A stretch of 32,000 bases of DNA from Erysipelotrichaceae bacterium (GTDB lineage: Bacteria > Bacillota_I > Bacilli_A > Erysipelotrichales > Erysipelotrichaceae), in assembly GCA_030604855.1 (NCBI GenBank), contig JAUVVC010000003.1, positions 120,001-152,000 of the forward strand, written 5' to 3'. How positions within the stretch are numbered: the stretch's first letter is position 1; every line of letters starts with the position of its first letter. The position numbers and the translations under genes are program-made. Shown here in pieces: positions 3,008 to 8,177 of the stretch. Under the pieces are notes generated by a model. It made no database searches and was not told the DNA's origin. It saw only the letters and a list, made by a program, of their open reading frames with translations.

Positions 3008-3030
3008 AAAACTCGCAAACGCGAGTTTTT
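3008..3030. terminator. Bidirectional terminator (tRNA-Leu on +, pepT/DUF438 operon on -)
   Basis: AAAACTCGC-AAAC-GCGAGTTTT hairpin with T-runs on both strands. Confidence 0.7.
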
Positions 3031-4183
3031 ATTTATCCCATTGCAGGAGTTTGCGTTGACCTTCCAAAGCACGGATGCCACTGACTTCTTGCGAGAGTTC
3101 AAGGACACCTTTATAAACATTATCGTTATCTCTTAAGGCGAAATAACGGATATAGAGAAACTTGCCACGCATTTCTATCCAGAAATTCGCTTCACTCTGT
3201 TCACCTCTCCGGAAAGCCTCAATGATGTTTTCAACCACATCCACACTTTCTGCGGGATGACAGTTACGGACATCCCTTCCTATAACGGCTGGAGATCGAG
3301 GGAAGATGCGATCTTTCGGTCGATTGAACCAACGGACCTTATTGTTTTCATCCACAAACGTACAGTCGATGGGTAAGGCATCCAAAACCATTGTCAATTG
3401 ATCAAAGCTCAAAGAGCCTGTTTCGGTGGTGAAGAAGGCATTATCTACAGTGAATTTGGGTTGAGGGCGTGGTTTTGGTGTCGGGATCCAGATGAAACCC
3501 AGTTCGAAGCTTTGGTGACGCATGGCTTCAAGTTCATTGACACTCAAGAGCTCATGCGCGACTTGGAACAGAATCATCTCTTCTTTTTGAATCAAACCAA
3601 AGGCTTTGAAGAAGTAATCCCCTAAAATCTCACTGATCGTTTGTCGTGGAAGATTATTCTTTAAGGCGTCTAAGGTATCTTTTAAACGTTTACGAGCTTG
3701 ATCTTGCAAAGACCATAGAATGGTCGTTCCTTGGTATTGTTCACCCTTGGATTCCAAGAAAGGAAAGAGGATGTTTTGAAGTTTGGTGTAATGGAGTTCA
3801 AAGGGGATTAAATCTTCGAAACGTTCAATCAGATGTTCCGGTATGAATTGATATTTATCTTCAATCAATATCGCTTTGATTGCATTCAATCGTTTCTCCA
3901 TCTCACGATTCTCTTGCATCATATGATCCAAGAACGAATCCTGAGGCATTTCCAAACGTTTGGTATCCAAACTCTGTGAGAACAGGTGGATCAACTTATC
4001 TAGGTACACCAAGATTTCGGCAGGTTTCGATCCATTCTTATTCACTTCATAAAACAAGGTGAACAAATCCGATGCATTGACACTCAGGACTTCCTTCTCA
4101 TATTCCTTATACACTTCATAATTGGCTTCGTTCTTCGCAATACGTTCGATGTATTCCAACAAACGTTCAAGTCGTGCTTCCAT
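3029..4183 (-). CDS. DUF438 domain protein with C-terminal PAS-like domain (putative sensor)
   Basis: The C-terminal block FVDENNKVRWFNRPKDRIFPRSPAVIGRDVRNCHPAESVDVVENIIEAFRRGEQSEANFWIEMRGKFLYIRYFALRD is the signature PAS-type module of DUF438 proteins. The ATG directly abuts the pepT stop, and a GGAGGTG RBS lies inside the pepT 3' end. Confidence 0.8.
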   Translation of the reverse strand: MEARLERLLEYIERIAKNEANYEVYKEYEKEVLSVNASDLFTLFYEVNKNGSKPAEILVYLDKLIHLFSQSLDTKRLEMPQDSFLDHMMQENREMEKRLNAIKAILIEDKYQFIPEHLIERFEDLIPFELHYTKLQNILFPFLESKGEQYQGTTILWSLQDQARKRLKDTLDALKNNLPRQTISEILGDYFFKAFGLIQKEEMILFQVAHELLSVNELEAMRHQSFELGFIWIPTPKPRPQPKFTVDNAFFTTETGSLSFDQLTMVLDALPIDCTFVDENNKVRWFNRPKDRIFPRSPAVIGRDVRNCHPAESVDVVENIIEAFRRGEQSEANFWIEMRGKFLYIRYFALRDNDNVYKGVLELSQEVSGIRALEGQRKLLQWDK

Positions 4184-5410
4184 TTACACCTCCGCGTTCA
4201 ATTGAACGAGTTTGACAATGACCTCCACAGCTTTCCGCATGTCATCTAAGGATGCGTATTCATAAGGACCGTGATAGTTCCCACCGCCTGTGAACAGATT
4301 TGGTGTTGGAATGCCCATGAAGGAGATCTTTGATCCATCAGTTCCACCACGAATGGGTTGGATGATCGGTTCGACCTCACAAGCCACCATGGCTTGCTTA
4401 GCCAACTCGACAGGTTTCATATCTTTTTCGATAACTTCACGCATGTTGTAGTAAGAATCTTTCATCGAGACCACAAAGCGCTCCGCACCGTATTTCTCAT
4501 TCAAGTAGTTCGCATTTTTGAGCATGCGATCCTTACGTGCCAAGAATTTCACTTTATCGTGATCACGGATGATGTAGGTCATCTTGCCGTGATCAATGGT
4601 CGTCTCCATGTCATGAAGAAGGAAGAAACCTTCATAGTGCTCAGTGTGTTCAGGTACTTCGTTCTGAGGTAGCAGGGCATCGAATTCCATGGCGAGTTTG
4701 GCACAGTTGATCATCTTATCCTTAGCGGTACCGGGATGGACCGATACGCCATGAAGTGTGACGATGGCAGCTGCCGCATTGAAACTCTCATACTCGAGTT
4801 CACCGCGTTTGGCTCCATCCAAGGTGTAGGCAAACTTCGCTCTGAAATTCGGCGCATCAAAGAGATTCGCTCCTCTGCCGATTTCTTCATCTGGTCCAAA
4901 CGCAATTCGGATCTCACCATGTTTGAGTTCGGGGTTATTTTTAAGGATAAGCATCGCTTCGATGATCTCCACGACACCGGCTTTATCATCCGCACCCAAG
5001 AGGGTGGTACCATCGGTGACGATTAAAGTATGTCCCACAAGTTCCTTTAGATGCGGAAACATCACAGGATCCGAAACCAATCCCGATGCTTCATTGAGCA
5101 CGATGGGCTCTCCATCATAATTCTCAATCACTCTGGGTGAAATGTTTTCGGCATTGAAATCGGCGGTATCGTAGTGCGCAATGAAGCCGATCGTATCCAC
5201 TTCATGGTCCACATTGCTTTTTACGGTAGCACTCACAAAACCATTGTCGGGGTTGTATTCCACTTCATCGAAGCCCAAGTCGACGAGTTCTTGAGCCAAC
5301 ATTTTGGCAAATACGACTTGATTCTCGGAGGAAGGGACCGTACTGCTCTTCTCATTGGATCGTGTGTTTATTTTGCAATAGCGTATGAATCGTTCTAATA
5401 AGGTTTCCAT
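4184..5410 (-). CDS. pepT: Peptidase T (tripeptide aminopeptidase, M20B)
   Basis: 408 aa. LERFIRYCKINTRS, IGFIAHYDTADF, LLGADDKAGV, FGPDEEIG and GGTDGS motifs are characteristic of PepT. Confidence 0.9.
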   Translation of the reverse strand: METLLERFIRYCKINTRSNEKSSTVPSSENQVVFAKMLAQELVDLGFDEVEYNPDNGFVSATVKSNVDHEVDTIGFIAHYDTADFNAENISPRVIENYDGEPIVLNEASGLVSDPVMFPHLKELVGHTLIVTDGTTLLGADDKAGVVEIIEAMLILKNNPELKHGEIRIAFGPDEEIGRGANLFDAPNFRAKFAYTLDGAKRGELEYESFNAAAAIVTLHGVSVHPGTAKDKMINCAKLAMEFDALLPQNEVPEHTEHYEGFFLLHDMETTIDHGKMTYIIRDHDKVKFLARKDRMLKNANYLNEKYGAERFVVSMKDSYYNMREVIEKDMKPVELAKQAMVACEVEPIIQPIRGGTDGSKISFMGIPTPNLFTGGGNYHGPYEYASLDDMRKAVEVIVKLVQLNAEV

Positions 5411-5491
5411 AAATTTCTCTTTTCTATTGAGTCTATTATACTGTACAAAATGTGAAAATATGCTATAGTGCTTTAGATTAATGGAGGGCTT

Positions 5492-6145
5492 ATGCGTCTA
5501 ACACTTTCTCGTATCCTATTGAATTTACTCTCGGTCACCATCATTGCGATTGGATTGACCCTTTTGATCAAAGCCAATCTAGGTCAGAGCACCGTCTCTG
5601 GTTTCAGTTCCACACTCGCACATATTTTGAATGTCAAAACGGGAACGATCGTTTTTTTCTTGAATCTTGTATGTTTCGTACTTGAATTGATCATCCTCAA
5701 CAAGAACGTGAAATGGTCCATCGGTCTCCAACTCCTTTTGAACAGCGTCTTTGGTTCCGTCGTGAACTTCTTTCTCTACGATGTGCCTTGGATCGCCAAT
5801 CTCAGCTTCAACAGTTACTTCGAACAGTTTGTTTTCTTACTGTTAGCCATCCTGATCATGGGTGTGGGTGTCAGCTTGATGATGAGCATCAACCTTGCGG
5901 TGTTGCCGTATGATGCTTTCATTGCCTTAGTATCGAAGACCTATAACATCCCTTTTGTCAAAGTACGTACGACAGCCGATCTCAGCTTCATCACAATTAC
6001 CTTGATTTTGGGTTTCTTGTTTCCCATCCCCTTCAATACGGTTCGTGAAGGAACGGTCATCTTCGCGTTTACCTTGGGAAGTGTCATTGCTTTTCTGAAC
6101 ATCCAATGGAAGAAACGCCTTCCGCTTTCCCTTAGACAAGCCTAG
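5492..6145 (+). CDS. YczE/YitT-like integral membrane protein (unknown function)
   Basis: 217 aa with 5-6 hydrophobic segments. The N-terminus IAIGLTLLIKANLGQSTVSGF resembles the YczE family. GGAGGG RBS. Confidence 0.55.
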   Translation: MRLTLSRILLNLLSVTIIAIGLTLLIKANLGQSTVSGFSSTLAHILNVKTGTIVFFLNLVCFVLELIILNKNVKWSIGLQLLLNSVFGSVVNFFLYDVPWIANLSFNSYFEQFVFLLLAILIMGVGVSLMMSINLAVLPYDAFIALVSKTYNIPFVKVRTTADLSFITITLILGFLFPIPFNTVREGTVIFAFTLGSVIAFLNIQWKKRLPLSLRQA

Positions 6146-6155
6146 CTTGTTTTTT
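6136..6155 (+). terminator. Weak candidate terminator
   Basis: ACAAGC-CTA-GCTTGT followed by TTTTT. The stem is short (6 bp) with a 3-nt loop. Confidence 0.35.
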
Positions 6156-6157
6156 AT

Positions 6158-6186
6158 TTTCCAAACTATCCACAAAGTTGTACAAT
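6158..6186 (+). promoter_or_regulatory. Candidate promoter TTTCCA-17-TACAAT placing the TSS at or next to the ATG of the WYL gene (possible leaderless mRNA)
   Basis: The -10 ends 6 nt before the A of the ATG at 6193. There is no Shine-Dalgarno upstream of this ATG. Confidence 0.35.
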
Positions 6187-6192
6187 TGAAGC

Positions 6193-7173
6193 ATGGAAGA
6201 ACGTCCTCAAAATAAACTTAAACTCTTGGAAATCCAAGACCTGCTCTTACGGGAAACCGATGATGAACATACTCTGACCGTTCAAGAGATCATTGATCAT
6301 CTCGCAAGCAAAGGCATGAAGAGTGAGCGTAAGAGTATTTATCTCTATATGGAACTCTTGGAAGCCTATGGTTTGGATATCATCAATGACAAAGAAAAGC
6401 AGAATCGATACCATGTCGGGAATCGACTTTTTCAGTTGGCTGAATTGAAATTGTTGGTGGATGCGGTCAAGTTCGCAAAATTCATCACCGCTGAGAAGAG
6501 CAGTGAACTCATCACGAAGTTGAAAACTTTGACCAGTGTCCATGAAGCAGCGCGTTTGGATCGTAATGACTGGATCTACAATCGTTTGAAATCTAAAAAT
6601 AACGCGGTCTATCTCAATGTGGATGCGATTCATGAGGCCATCCTCAAACAACGCATGATCCGCTTCAAATACTTTGATTATGATTTGGATAAAGAGATCG
6701 TTTATCGCAAACAGGGTGAATTCTATCGTGCCATCCCCGTCTTCTTGTGTTGGGATGACGAGAAATACTATGTCATCGTATATCAAGAAAACCATCAAGA
6801 TTATGCCGTATATCGACTGGATAAGATGCGTGAAGTTTCAATGCTTAAAACCAAGCATGAACATCAAGCGGATCTTGAAGCGGTCGAACAATACTGTGCC
6901 GGTCTCTTCCATATGTATACTGGGAATCAAGAAGAAGTAACGATGAGCTTTCAAGCAGGCTTGGTGAATGTGGTCTTTGATCGCTTTGGTTTAGATGTCA
7001 AAATCCAAAGACAAAATGAAGAATGGTTCACTATCACCGAAAACATCAGCGTCAGTCCAACCTTCTTTGCCTGGATTTTGCAGTTTGGGGATAAGGCAAA
7101 GATTCTATCCCCCCTTTCCGTTCAAAATGAACTGGTAGAATTGTGTCAAAAGAGCTTGAATCAATATGAATAA
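6193..7173 (+). CDS. WYL-domain transcriptional regulator (wHTH - WYL - WCX-like C-terminal domain)
   Basis: wHTH: LTVQEIIDHLASKGMKSERKSIYLYMELLEAYG. WYL core: IRFKYFDYD...YYVIVYQENHQDYAVYRLDKMREV. C-terminal: FFAWILQFGDKAKILSPLSV. Confidence 0.85.
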   Translation: MEERPQNKLKLLEIQDLLLRETDDEHTLTVQEIIDHLASKGMKSERKSIYLYMELLEAYGLDIINDKEKQNRYHVGNRLFQLAELKLLVDAVKFAKFITAEKSSELITKLKTLTSVHEAARLDRNDWIYNRLKSKNNAVYLNVDAIHEAILKQRMIRFKYFDYDLDKEIVYRKQGEFYRAIPVFLCWDDEKYYVIVYQENHQDYAVYRLDKMREVSMLKTKHEHQADLEAVEQYCAGLFHMYTGNQEEVTMSFQAGLVNVVFDRFGLDVKIQRQNEEWFTITENISVSPTFFAWILQFGDKAKILSPLSVQNELVELCQKSLNQYE

Positions 7174-8035
7174 ATCAACCATCAATAAACAACTTGCCAT
7201 CAACTATACCGTGCTTCGACGCTTGGTCCAAAATGACCATCTCGTTCATTCACGCATCCATAAAGATAACATTCACGAATTGATGGATGTCCGCAAATTC
7301 TACGAGACTTATTTCGAAAGTACAAAATTCGTTCAATATTTTCCCCAGGTCTGCCAACTCATCAAGCGTGAGACAGAAAGTGCTTTTGCGCGCCTTCGTC
7401 AACGGGTGTACATCGTGCATAAATACGATGAAGCCTATCCCAAGGCACTCATTCAGGATTTGAAAGAAGATGCGCCGCTTTTCCTGTATCTTTGCGGAGA
7501 CAACACCTTATTGGATCGTAAAGTGAAACGCGTCGCGATCGTAACGACTTTGAACCGTGAAGATGCTTACATCGAGACCAGTAAACAGATTTGTGCTTCA
7601 TTCAAGGATACGTACTATACAGTGATGATTCAGAATCGTTCAGCTGTGGATCATGTCTTGTTTGAGGAGTTGAAGGAAGTGAATGTGTCGATGTTGTATT
7701 TCGTGAATGCCCCTTTGTTTAAAGAAGACCATGCCGATAAGATCTGTAAATCGCATTGTCCAAAATATGCGATGTTGAGTTTTGTTGGACCGACCGAAGA
7801 TGGACTTGAGGATTTCATGCGCTTGAAAATCATGAATTCATTGGGTAAAGTCACGGTTTTGTTAAGTGACCAACCCAACGATGTCCACCATTTTTCTGTC
7901 CAAAACAACTATGCTTGGCATAAGCCGTCCATTCTCCCCATGATCAAACCGTCCACGATTCCACACTTTGAACGTGTATTCGCCTTGGATGATTCAGATG
8001 TATTCATTGATGTTCTAAATAACTGTATTTCATAG
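7166..8035 (+). CDS. Divergent DprA/Smf-like (SLOG Rossmann-fold) protein lacking canonical DprA motifs
   Basis: By-eye alignment to DprA. YDEAYPKALIQDLKEDAPLFLYLCGDNTLLDRKVKRVAIVTT matches D..YP..L..I.DPP.vLy.kG...LL...iAIVGTR. RLKIMNSLGKVTVLL matches RNRIIsGLs..vvVv. The GTR, SG.A.GID and SGSL motifs are substituted. The start overlaps the WYL gene by 8 nt (ATGAATAA). Confidence 0.55.
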   Translation: MNKSTINKQLAINYTVLRRLVQNDHLVHSRIHKDNIHELMDVRKFYETYFESTKFVQYFPQVCQLIKRETESAFARLRQRVYIVHKYDEAYPKALIQDLKEDAPLFLYLCGDNTLLDRKVKRVAIVTTLNREDAYIETSKQICASFKDTYYTVMIQNRSAVDHVLFEELKEVNVSMLYFVNAPLFKEDHADKICKSHCPKYAMLSFVGPTEDGLEDFMRLKIMNSLGKVTVLLSDQPNDVHHFSVQNNYAWHKPSILPMIKPSTIPHFERVFALDDSDVFIDVLNNCIS

Positions 8036-8113
8036 CGAAAGAAGGGATAATTTCAAAAAAGTTGTGAAATTGAATTAGTTTTGTATTAAATTTAACAAAA
8101 TTTTGCAAAGTTA

Positions 8114-8142
8114 TTGATTTGCCGTGTTTGCAGTTTTATACT
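8114..8142 (+). promoter_or_regulatory. Candidate sigma-A promoter TTGATT-17-TATACT for the CoADR-fusion gene
   Basis: Hexamers at 8114-8119 and 8137-8142 with a 17-nt spacer, 36 nt upstream of the ATG. Confidence 0.55.
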
Positions 8143-8155
8143 CATACTTGTGAGT
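8140..8155. promoter_or_regulatory. Inverted repeat ACTCA-N6-TGAGT overlapping the -10/TSS (candidate operator)
   Basis: Perfect 5-bp arms, extendable with mismatches to 8137-8158. Confidence 0.3.
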
Positions 8156-8177
8156 TTATGCGCAAAGGAGCAGAACG

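Follow-up and report, generated by a model that had tools for sequence, protein, structure and literature searches.

A WYL-domain regulator gene overlapping a gene for a motif-less DprA-like protein in uncultured Erysipelotrichaceae

Why should a gene for a WYL-domain transcription regulator run directly into a gene for a relative of the RecA loader DprA in which the residues for binding single-stranded DNA (ssDNA) have been replaced? The question is raised by positions 6193-8035 of the window, the whole stretch of 32,000 nucleotides analysed here (contig JAUVVC010000003.1, Erysipelotrichaceae bacterium). All coordinates are those of the window (Table 1), and related loci and proteins are cited by their L and P numbers. 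Both open reading frames (ORFs) and the 8-nt overlap between them, given in a preliminary description made from the sequence alone, were present, with 7166-7173 reading ATGAATAA. The reading that we favour, with a probability of roughly one half, is that of an autoregulated, vertically inherited two-gene operon in which a WYL factor resembling DriD and PafBC, probably responsive to ssDNA, is made together with a DprA-derived partner that has been repurposed.

The relationship of the second protein to DprA was examined by profiles and by fold. Against the Pfam DprA model (PF02481) the 289-aa protein scored 23.2 bits, below the cutoff of 29.6, with residues 80-153 aligned to profile positions 6-77 of 212. 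No NCBIfam model matched it, including the dprA equivalog TIGR00732 (cutoff 191 bits). PADLOC gave partial matches to PsyrA (E 8.9e-11) and ShosA (E 1.4e-7), which covered only about 85-145 residues and came from models that carry no curated cutoff. When a profile of the family was searched against 1.84 billion representative proteins, six family members were recovered at E<1e-30 and, after a gap, about 55 further proteins at E 7e-9 to 1e-3. The first ten matches from outside the family all pass PF02481 and cover query residues of about 80-265, which is the entire Rossmann core.

The AlphaFold2 (AF2) model of the protein (mean pLDDT 82.5, pTM 0.72) consists of a helical N-terminal domain at residues 1-75 and a Rossmann domain, that is, the SAM-like N-domain and extended Rossmann domain of DprA. 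The preliminary description had called for a structure search against DprA and LOG, and both were among the Foldseek matches in the PDB. The top match was ShosA (8zva, E 2.7e-10), followed by S. pneumoniae DprA (3uqz, E 1e-8), with which 310 columns were aligned across both domains at full length, and by H. pylori and R. palustris DprA (DprA group, E 1e-8 to 1e-6). Further down were Moco-carrier proteins (E 5e-5) and LOG (E 4e-4), placing the model within the SLOG fold. Because the profile search, the AF2/Foldseek comparison and an anchored motif alignment all agree, the DprA/SLOG relationship first proposed by eye is real, and the 289-aa protein is a genuine, though sub-threshold, relative of DprA. 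As described earlier, the protein has no C-terminal winged helix. This is not a sign of degeneration, since Firmicute DprA and ShosA likewise contain only the SAM and Rossmann domains.

The ssDNA-binding residues were then read from an alignment anchored on S. pneumoniae DprA. The YP..L...AP.FLY..G..LL block is intact in the window protein. In the loop after the third strand, VGSR has become VTTL, so that T127-T128-L129 stands in place of G-S/T/A-R, and SGLAKGID (SGxAxGID) has become IQNRSAVD (Q156-N157-R158-S159..D162). These two substitutions were as claimed before; the third, of the SGSL-type block to DQPN, is aligned only roughly. A study of H. pylori DprA bound to ssDNA proposed G-S/T/A-R and F/L/Y-x-x-R-N/D as two ssDNA-binding signatures of the DprA domain, with R52 in the first motif and R143 in the second (F140-N144); R52E and R143E lowered the affinity about 300-fold and about 170-fold, respectively (PMC3950713). 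In ShosA, both ssDNA binding and antitoxin activity depend on the equivalent residues R139 and R234 (PMC12961424). The equivalent of ShosA R139 is L129 in the window protein. The F-P-A-R-N helix motif has become D-F-M-R-L, which departs from F/L/Y-x-x-R-N/D at its first and last residues. R219 possibly aligns with R143 of H. pylori DprA and R234 of ShosA; other clades have no arginine there. As judged from this alignment, the window protein has kept neither of the published ssDNA-binding signatures of DprA.

Where such a protein came from can be followed in an older grade of the same locus (L016/L017 and the metagenome loci L032 and L034-L038), which is the only part of the family to keep the GSR motif. 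There, a WYL protein 45% identical to that of the window is followed by a 298-aa DprA-like protein that has the family N-terminal domain and the same genomic position. The L016 protein passes the Pfam DprA model with 69.7 bits and keeps VGSR and SG(F/Y)D..LD; F-x-x-R-N is already lost. It is labelled by NCBI as 'hypothetical protein' or, in some metagenome-assembled genomes (MAGs), as 'DNA-processing protein DprA'. It scored 53.7 bits with TIGR00732, far from the cutoff of 191, against 78.7 bits with PsyrA. As it is the best-preserved relative, the earlier view that the window gene is not a canonical competence dprA was upheld by this score and by the lack of a TIGR00732 match in the window protein itself. 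Compared with L016, the window protein is 45% identical in the N-domain and 55% in the beta1-beta2 block, the two best conserved parts. The least conserved part, with 11% identity, is the former ligand-loop segment at residues 128-180.

The nearest outgroup proteins are of the PsyrA type, scoring 159-351 bits with PADLOC PsyrA and 46-111 bits with TIGR00732. Two of them (P0033 and P0038) carry the A-M-x-R-N variant, which was noted by Wang et al. for second DprA homologs (PMC3950713). By these scores the family groups with the PsyrA/ShosA-type DprA-like antitoxins and not with canonical DprA. Pairing with a WYL gene was considered as a general feature of PsyrA proteins and rejected, since the neighbours of the PsyrA-like outgroup proteins P0030 and P0031 are not WYL proteins.

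The junction between the two genes changes along the same series. In the GSR-retaining grade, the genes are separated by a spacer of 15-19 nt (longer in L035-L038), and the second gene has an AGGAG Shine-Dalgarno sequence (SD) and a GTG start. In the motif-less lineages, the genes overlap throughout, by 4, 8 or 11 nt, and the SD before the ATG of the second gene is missing with the sole exception of L015 (GGAG). Junction type thus co-varies with motif state, the loss of the SD accompanying overlap and loss of the motif. The ATGAATAA overlap indicates that the two genes are translationally coupled: since the second gene starts within the first and lacks an SD, the DprA-like protein would be made only when the WYL gene is translated.

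The first protein passed both Pfam thresholds, with 34.3 bits for WYL (cutoff 21.8) and 27.4 bits for WCX (cutoff 23.9), and the PADLOC WYL models matched it at E 5.8e-24. Its AF2 model (pLDDT 79.8) has an N-terminal winged helix-turn-helix (wHTH) domain at residues 6-77. Full-length Foldseek matches to this model were DriD (8tp8, E 4e-14) and PafBC (E 1e-11), and weaker ones were BrxR and CapW (E ~5e-7) and WYL1 (E 4e-5). A search of the PDB with the single sequence gave zero matches and a profile was needed; with the profile, only DriD chains were found by sequence (E 2e-6). The likeness to DriD and PafBC agrees with the previous suggestion of an ssDNA-sensor-like regulator. RWHVR, which marks the CapW/BrxR repressors (PMC11662680), is missing, and the WYL-motif strand reads C-W-D-D-E in the window protein.

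The residues of DriD that contact ssDNA were taken as Y168, R176, R178, Y192, K202, R204, W206, R207, Y240 and R288 (PMC9186387). Y192, W206, R207 and Y240 correspond to Y193, Y207, R208 and Y242 of the window protein, among which Y193 and R208 are invariant. The alignment does not reach Y168, R176 and R178; two residues of the window protein in that region, R172 and Y178, are invariant.

Is the pair a stable unit, or a decaying remnant? The DprA-like family is tiny: 5.8 billion proteins contain 22 clusters of it at 90% identity, none with a precomputed Pfam domain, and at 50% identity it has six representatives. Fourteen loci came from a scan in which each GTDB species was represented by a single genome (11 in uncultured Erysipelotrichaceae, one in a Bacillota bacterium and two in complete metagenome-assembled chromosomes), and a scan of JGI metagenomes added 17. 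A WYL gene lay directly upstream at all 14 genome loci, at all 16 metagenome loci with upstream sequence and at L015-L017, about 33 loci altogether, so the conservation of the pair, for which the preliminary description had asked, held at every related locus examined. The gene order is fixed: pepT on the minus strand, sometimes a YitT/DUF6198 membrane protein gene, the WYL gene, the DprA-like gene, and a gene encoding a CoA-disulfide-reductase-rhodanese-TusA-DsrE protein (CoADR). The DprA-like proteins share 33-92% identity with that of the window and the WYL proteins 36-93%; for the flanking PepT and CoADR the values are 67-97%.

In nine unsaturated sequence pairs, the ratio of nonsynonymous to synonymous substitution (dN/dS, Nei-Gojobori) was 0.02-0.06 for the WYL gene and 0.02-0.07 for the DprA-like gene. 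Because purifying selection on it is so strong, the 'degenerate' DprA-like protein is the product of a maintained gene, and a pseudogene or decaying gene was rejected. The pair is a vertically inherited chromosomal operon of one uncultured Erysipelotrichaceae clade from gut and environmental sources.

How the operon might be controlled was examined in the region upstream of the WYL gene. A promoter scan found a weak -35 TTTCCA (6158-6163) and, after a 17-nt spacer, a -10 TACAAT (6181-6186), which is the same in every clade except L015 (TAGAAT). An extended -10 reading of TTGTACAAT was rejected, as its TG touches the hexamer and does not fit TGnTATAAT. With the -10 ending only 6 nt before the WYL ATG and no SD in front of that start codon, WYL transcripts of the window clade and of L006/L007 probably lack a leader. 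In the sister clades L004/5 and L008-L016, a short leader with a GAGG-type SD stands before the WYL gene.

In alignments anchored on the -10, the spacer contains an imperfect 18-bp dyad, TATCC-N8-GTACA in the window and TGTCC-N8-GTACA in other clades (alignment consensus T.TCC..A..gtTG-TACA). Eight of the nine clade representatives have kept the dyad, at only about 42-62% identity between their WYL proteins. It was not found upstream of the partnerless WYL homologs L018-L021. Conservation of the spacer at such evolutionary depth suggests a binding site, and the dyad is a candidate site for the WYL regulator itself. Adjacent genes are described as typical targets of WYL regulators in one published account (PMC10693628). 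PafBC activates by sigma adaptation with a '-26 motif' (PMC11804915), and DriD acts where a good -35 is lacking, from a site whose distance to the -10 is constant (PMC13004042). By analogy, the position of the dyad fits both modes of activation. An autorepression operator would look alike, so activation and autorepression cannot be told apart by sequence.

From these results we infer a ligand for the WYL factor, autoregulation, a direction of regulation and a molecular role for the partner as follows. The WYL factor, of homodimer type and activator-like, would sense a nucleic-acid-derived ligand, most likely ssDNA arising from DNA damage or replication stress, and would control its own promoter through the TGTCC-N8-GTACA spacer dyad. 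Synthesis of the DprA-like protein would be tied to translation of the WYL gene. The DprA-like protein appears to descend from the PsyrA/ShosA branch of DprA-like ssDNA-binding, RecA-interacting proteins. An L016-type ancestor with the GSR arginine loop was probably an ssDNA-binding accessory factor of repair or recombination, induced by the regulator. In the window lineage, the ssDNA pocket would have been rebuilt (TTL, QNRS..D) while the N-domain and the first beta-strands were conserved. Because the ssDNA pocket is lost and the N-terminal domain kept, the partner now most likely works either by contacting other proteins (the WYL regulator, RecA or both) or by binding some other small ligand, and not by canonical ssDNA capture.

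Several observations weigh against this account. The DriD contacts K202, R204 and R288 have no equivalent in the window WYL protein, and one Firmicute WYL regulator binds cyclic di-GMP (PMC11880434). WYL relatives at 44-49% identity are often partnerless (L018, L020 and L021 are solitary); since such close homologs occur without it, the WYL regulator does not strictly depend on the DprA-like partner. The dyad is imperfect (4/5 positions) and weak in L016, and it could be a repression operator or plain promoter sequence. Some ssDNA binding may persist in the DprA-like protein through R219, as this residue may match R143 of H. pylori DprA. Finally, the constant adjacency of the CoADR gene could signify another physiological role.

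Among the alternatives, the one that survives best is an obligate regulatory complex, which we regard as possible though well short of probable. In such a complex, the DprA-like protein would be a stoichiometric subunit, co-sensor or anti-activator of the WYL factor, bound through its SAM-like domain, and would tune or end the response. The strict coupling of translation, with no SD, that marks the degenerate lineages, the 100% co-occurrence within the family and an N-domain that is best conserved while the ssDNA loops decayed all point this way. So does a precedent: DprA of S. pneumoniae binds phosphorylated ComE and shuts off competence (PMC7665891), which makes a direct action of the DprA-like protein on the WYL factor plausible by analogy. 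A complex that is obligate agrees less well with WYL homologs living without a partner at 44-49% identity and with the separated genes of the older grade, the second of which has its own SD. We would put forward with similar reserve the tentative idea that a DprA scaffold has become a translationally coupled regulatory subunit of a WYL factor, binding the regulator and perhaps RecA but itself no longer capturing ssDNA, and that it gates or shuts off a non-SOS DNA-damage response in Erysipelotrichaceae.

The preliminary description had proposed a 'sensing/conflict module'. The sensing pair is supported; the conflict part is not. On a conflict or defence reading, the pair would be the domesticated remnant of a PsyrTA/ShosTA-like toxin-antitoxin system, with the antitoxin now controlled by a WYL protein that detects DNA of phages or other foreign DNA. 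The best PADLOC family matches are to PsyrA (E 8.9e-11) and ShosA, the top PDB fold is ShosA, and WYL regulators frequently guard defence systems. This reading is nevertheless unlikely, as at the loci inspected for gene content no RecQ-like or phosphoribosyltransferase (PRTase) toxin or other effector adjoins the pair. The locus does not resemble a defence island or mobile cargo: the pair holds a fixed syntenic position among housekeeping genes in more than 30 loci of one family. Viral contigs of IMG/VR yielded zero relatives confirmed by tblastn and BFVD gave no fold match with E<=1e-3, and a viral origin was rejected on these grounds. A dN/dS of 0.02-0.07, the replacement of the essential Arg139 of ShosA by leucine, the lack of RWHVR in the WYL protein and the partnerless WYL relatives speak against the conflict reading as well.

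The favoured two-gene operon was also weighed against a larger unit that includes the CoADR gene. In that case the pair would act with the CoADR-rhodanese-TusA-DsrE gene in a response to thiol or persulfide stress, and the ligand sensed by the WYL protein would resemble a nucleotide or be related to CoA. At every locus with sequence that far, even where the upstream neighbours differ, CoADR follows the pair, and in the window clade a simple scan detected nothing like a terminator between the DprA-like gene and CoADR (8036-8177). This adjacency is perhaps mere conserved synteny of related genomes. Directly past the DprA-like stop of L008-L010, a strong hairpin with a T-run was read by eye. Because terminator-like hairpins stand there and none was found in the window clade, read-through into CoADR may differ between clades.

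The stretch at 8057-8074 also resembles the WYL promoter region, a 17-mer being 15/17 identical to 6174-6190. The idea that 8057-8074, in front of CoADR, is another WYL operator like 6173-6190 was rejected, since the core conserved across clades is a different element. This element, TTGTGAAA(AAAG), lies about 100 nt upstream of CoADR in all clades (L001-L015), with its core at 8062-8069 in the window, and looks like a Rex/CRP-type half-site of a regulator other than that of the dyad. In the GSR-retaining grade (L016 7226-7525; L032, L034-L038), a gene of ArsR/HTH_5 type lies right before the CoADR-rhodanese-TusA-DsrE gene, and it is missing in the window clade. An ArsR-type regulator before such a gene is typical of sulfide- or persulfide-responsive operons. 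In L035-L038, an insert of about 2.8 kb separates the DprA-like gene from the ArsR and CoADR unit. With a dedicated regulator in the older grade, terminator-like hairpins in L008-L010, a downstream core that differs from the promoter dyad and this insert, we consider a joint function with CoADR improbable.

That the second gene is the lineage's real, highly divergent DprA, serving transformation or recombination under WYL control, is the least likely alternative, for although its SAM and Rossmann architecture and its length are those of Firmicute DprA, NCBI names the L016-grade ortholog so in some MAGs and no second DprA-like coding region was found by tblastn within the 32-kb window, it lacks a TIGR00732 match, falls below the Pfam gathering threshold, has lost both ssDNA signature motifs and has PsyrA-like paralogs, not canonical DprA, as its nearest relatives.

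Table 1. Features of the WYL/DprA-like locus in the window
Feature	Coordinates	Strand	Description and basis
Terminator hairpin with T-run	6134..6152	+	Of the upstream DUF6198/YitT membrane-protein gene; terminator scan
Promoter of the WYL operon	6158..6186	+	-35 TTTCCA (weak), 17-nt spacer, -10 TACAAT; promoter scan
Imperfect 18-bp dyad TATCC-N8-GTACA	6167..6184		Candidate WYL site in the spacer, overlapping the -10; -10-anchored alignment
wHTH-WYL-WCX transcription regulator, 326 aa	6193..7173	+	Pfam, PADLOC, Foldseek; fold nearest DriD/PafBC
Stop/start overlap, 8 nt	7166..7173	+	Reads ATGAATAA; start of the second gene and stop of the first in one
DprA-like protein, 289 aa	7166..8035	+	SAM-like N-domain (about 1-75) and Rossmann/SLOG domain (about 81-289)

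The terminator hairpin of the membrane-protein gene is kept in L001-L007 and separates that gene from the WYL operon. The other neighbours in the window are all housekeeping genes: a MATE pump, a DJ-1/PfpI protein, a PAS/hemerythrin-like protein, pepT, an Opp transporter, a chromate transporter, a mannitol phosphotransferase system operon, a thiolase and a FabH-like gene. A PAS_10/DUF438-type gene abuts pepT without a gap (3029-4183 and 4184-5410, both on the minus strand), and the same was seen in L001-L007 and L015.

The WYL family is far larger than the DprA-like family, with 4432 homologs at E<=1e-10. At L019, the gene for a WYL homolog with 49% identity overlaps a downstream 194-aa ORF (4998-5582), which has no Pfam match. 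This ORF was rejected as a member of the DprA-like family (hhalign probability 0.1), and L019 may represent another arrangement of a WYL gene with a small partner. A gene for a Y-family polymerase (IMS) lies near this locus. P0129, a 434-aa predicted protein on an ENA contig of 2.5 kb, carries Pfam PF22920/PF08459 and is 92% identical to the window WYL protein over 55% of the latter; it is either a gene fusion or the product of a chimeric or misassembled contig. Many WYL homologs of about 45-56% identity (P0117, P0142-P0144, L020 and others) show a faint match to Pfam PF16902 (FokI_D3).

Among the bacterial sensors of ssDNA that work independently of SOS, WYL regulators are coming to be seen as the principal kind. 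To our knowledge, almost nothing is known of the WYL regulators of Firmicutes. A search of the literature on WYL proteins with DprA, PsyrTA, ShosTA or SLOG found no such pair described, in agreement with the earlier statement that no characterised WYL system with an inactive DprA was known to its author. WYL control of adjacent genes is already known; what is new is a coupled, motif-less DprA-like partner together with evolutionary intermediates. If the partner is indeed a regulatory subunit, the pair would be a two-protein WYL sensor without a described counterpart, and the locus could show whether WYL factors work with accessory subunits. The graded series of two-gene loci could show how a RecA-loader or antitoxin scaffold is repurposed. 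The findings also advise caution with the label 'DprA', as used by NCBI for the older grade, and with labelling WYL-adjacent SLOG genes as 'defence' from domain content alone. The immediate impact is limited by an uncultured lineage and a tiny family; the anatomy is clean and testable.

Compared with known systems, the second protein shares with canonical DprA/Smf, the RecA loader, a homologous Rossmann core, the YP block, and the length and architecture of S. pneumoniae DprA. It differs in failing the Pfam and TIGR00732 thresholds, in the loss of the ssDNA motifs and in lying outside the usual competence context. With ShosA and PsyrA, the antitoxins of the anti-phage systems ShosTA and PsyrTA, it shares the SAM and Rossmann domains without a C-terminal winged helix, and these proteins gave the top structural and PADLOC matches. 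However, neither a ShosT PRTase nor a PsyrT RecQ-like helicase adjoins it, and its neighbours are YitT/DUF6198, pepT and CoADR. R139 of ShosA is leucine here, and the gene keeps to one chromosomal site, where it is paired with a WYL gene instead of a toxin gene.

The first protein resembles CapW and BrxR, the CBASS and BREX repressors, which are ssDNA-sensing wHTH-WYL-WCX regulators lying directly upstream of the genes they control. The fold match to them was weaker (E ~5e-7 vs 4e-14 for DriD), RWHVR is absent (CWDDE) and no defence genes are nearby. From DriD of Caulobacter and PafBC of Actinobacteria, the ssDNA-activated activators of non-SOS damage responses, it differs in a sequence identity of only about 13-18% in the Foldseek alignments and in the three DriD contacts that are not conserved; it comes from a Firmicute lineage, and no DriD or PafBC locus has been described with a coupled DprA-like gene. 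Yet these two are its best fold matches and have the same wHTH-WYL-WCX architecture, several ssDNA-contact positions of DriD are retained, and the putative target promoter likewise has a good -10, a weak -35 and a conserved element whose spacing from the -10 is constant.

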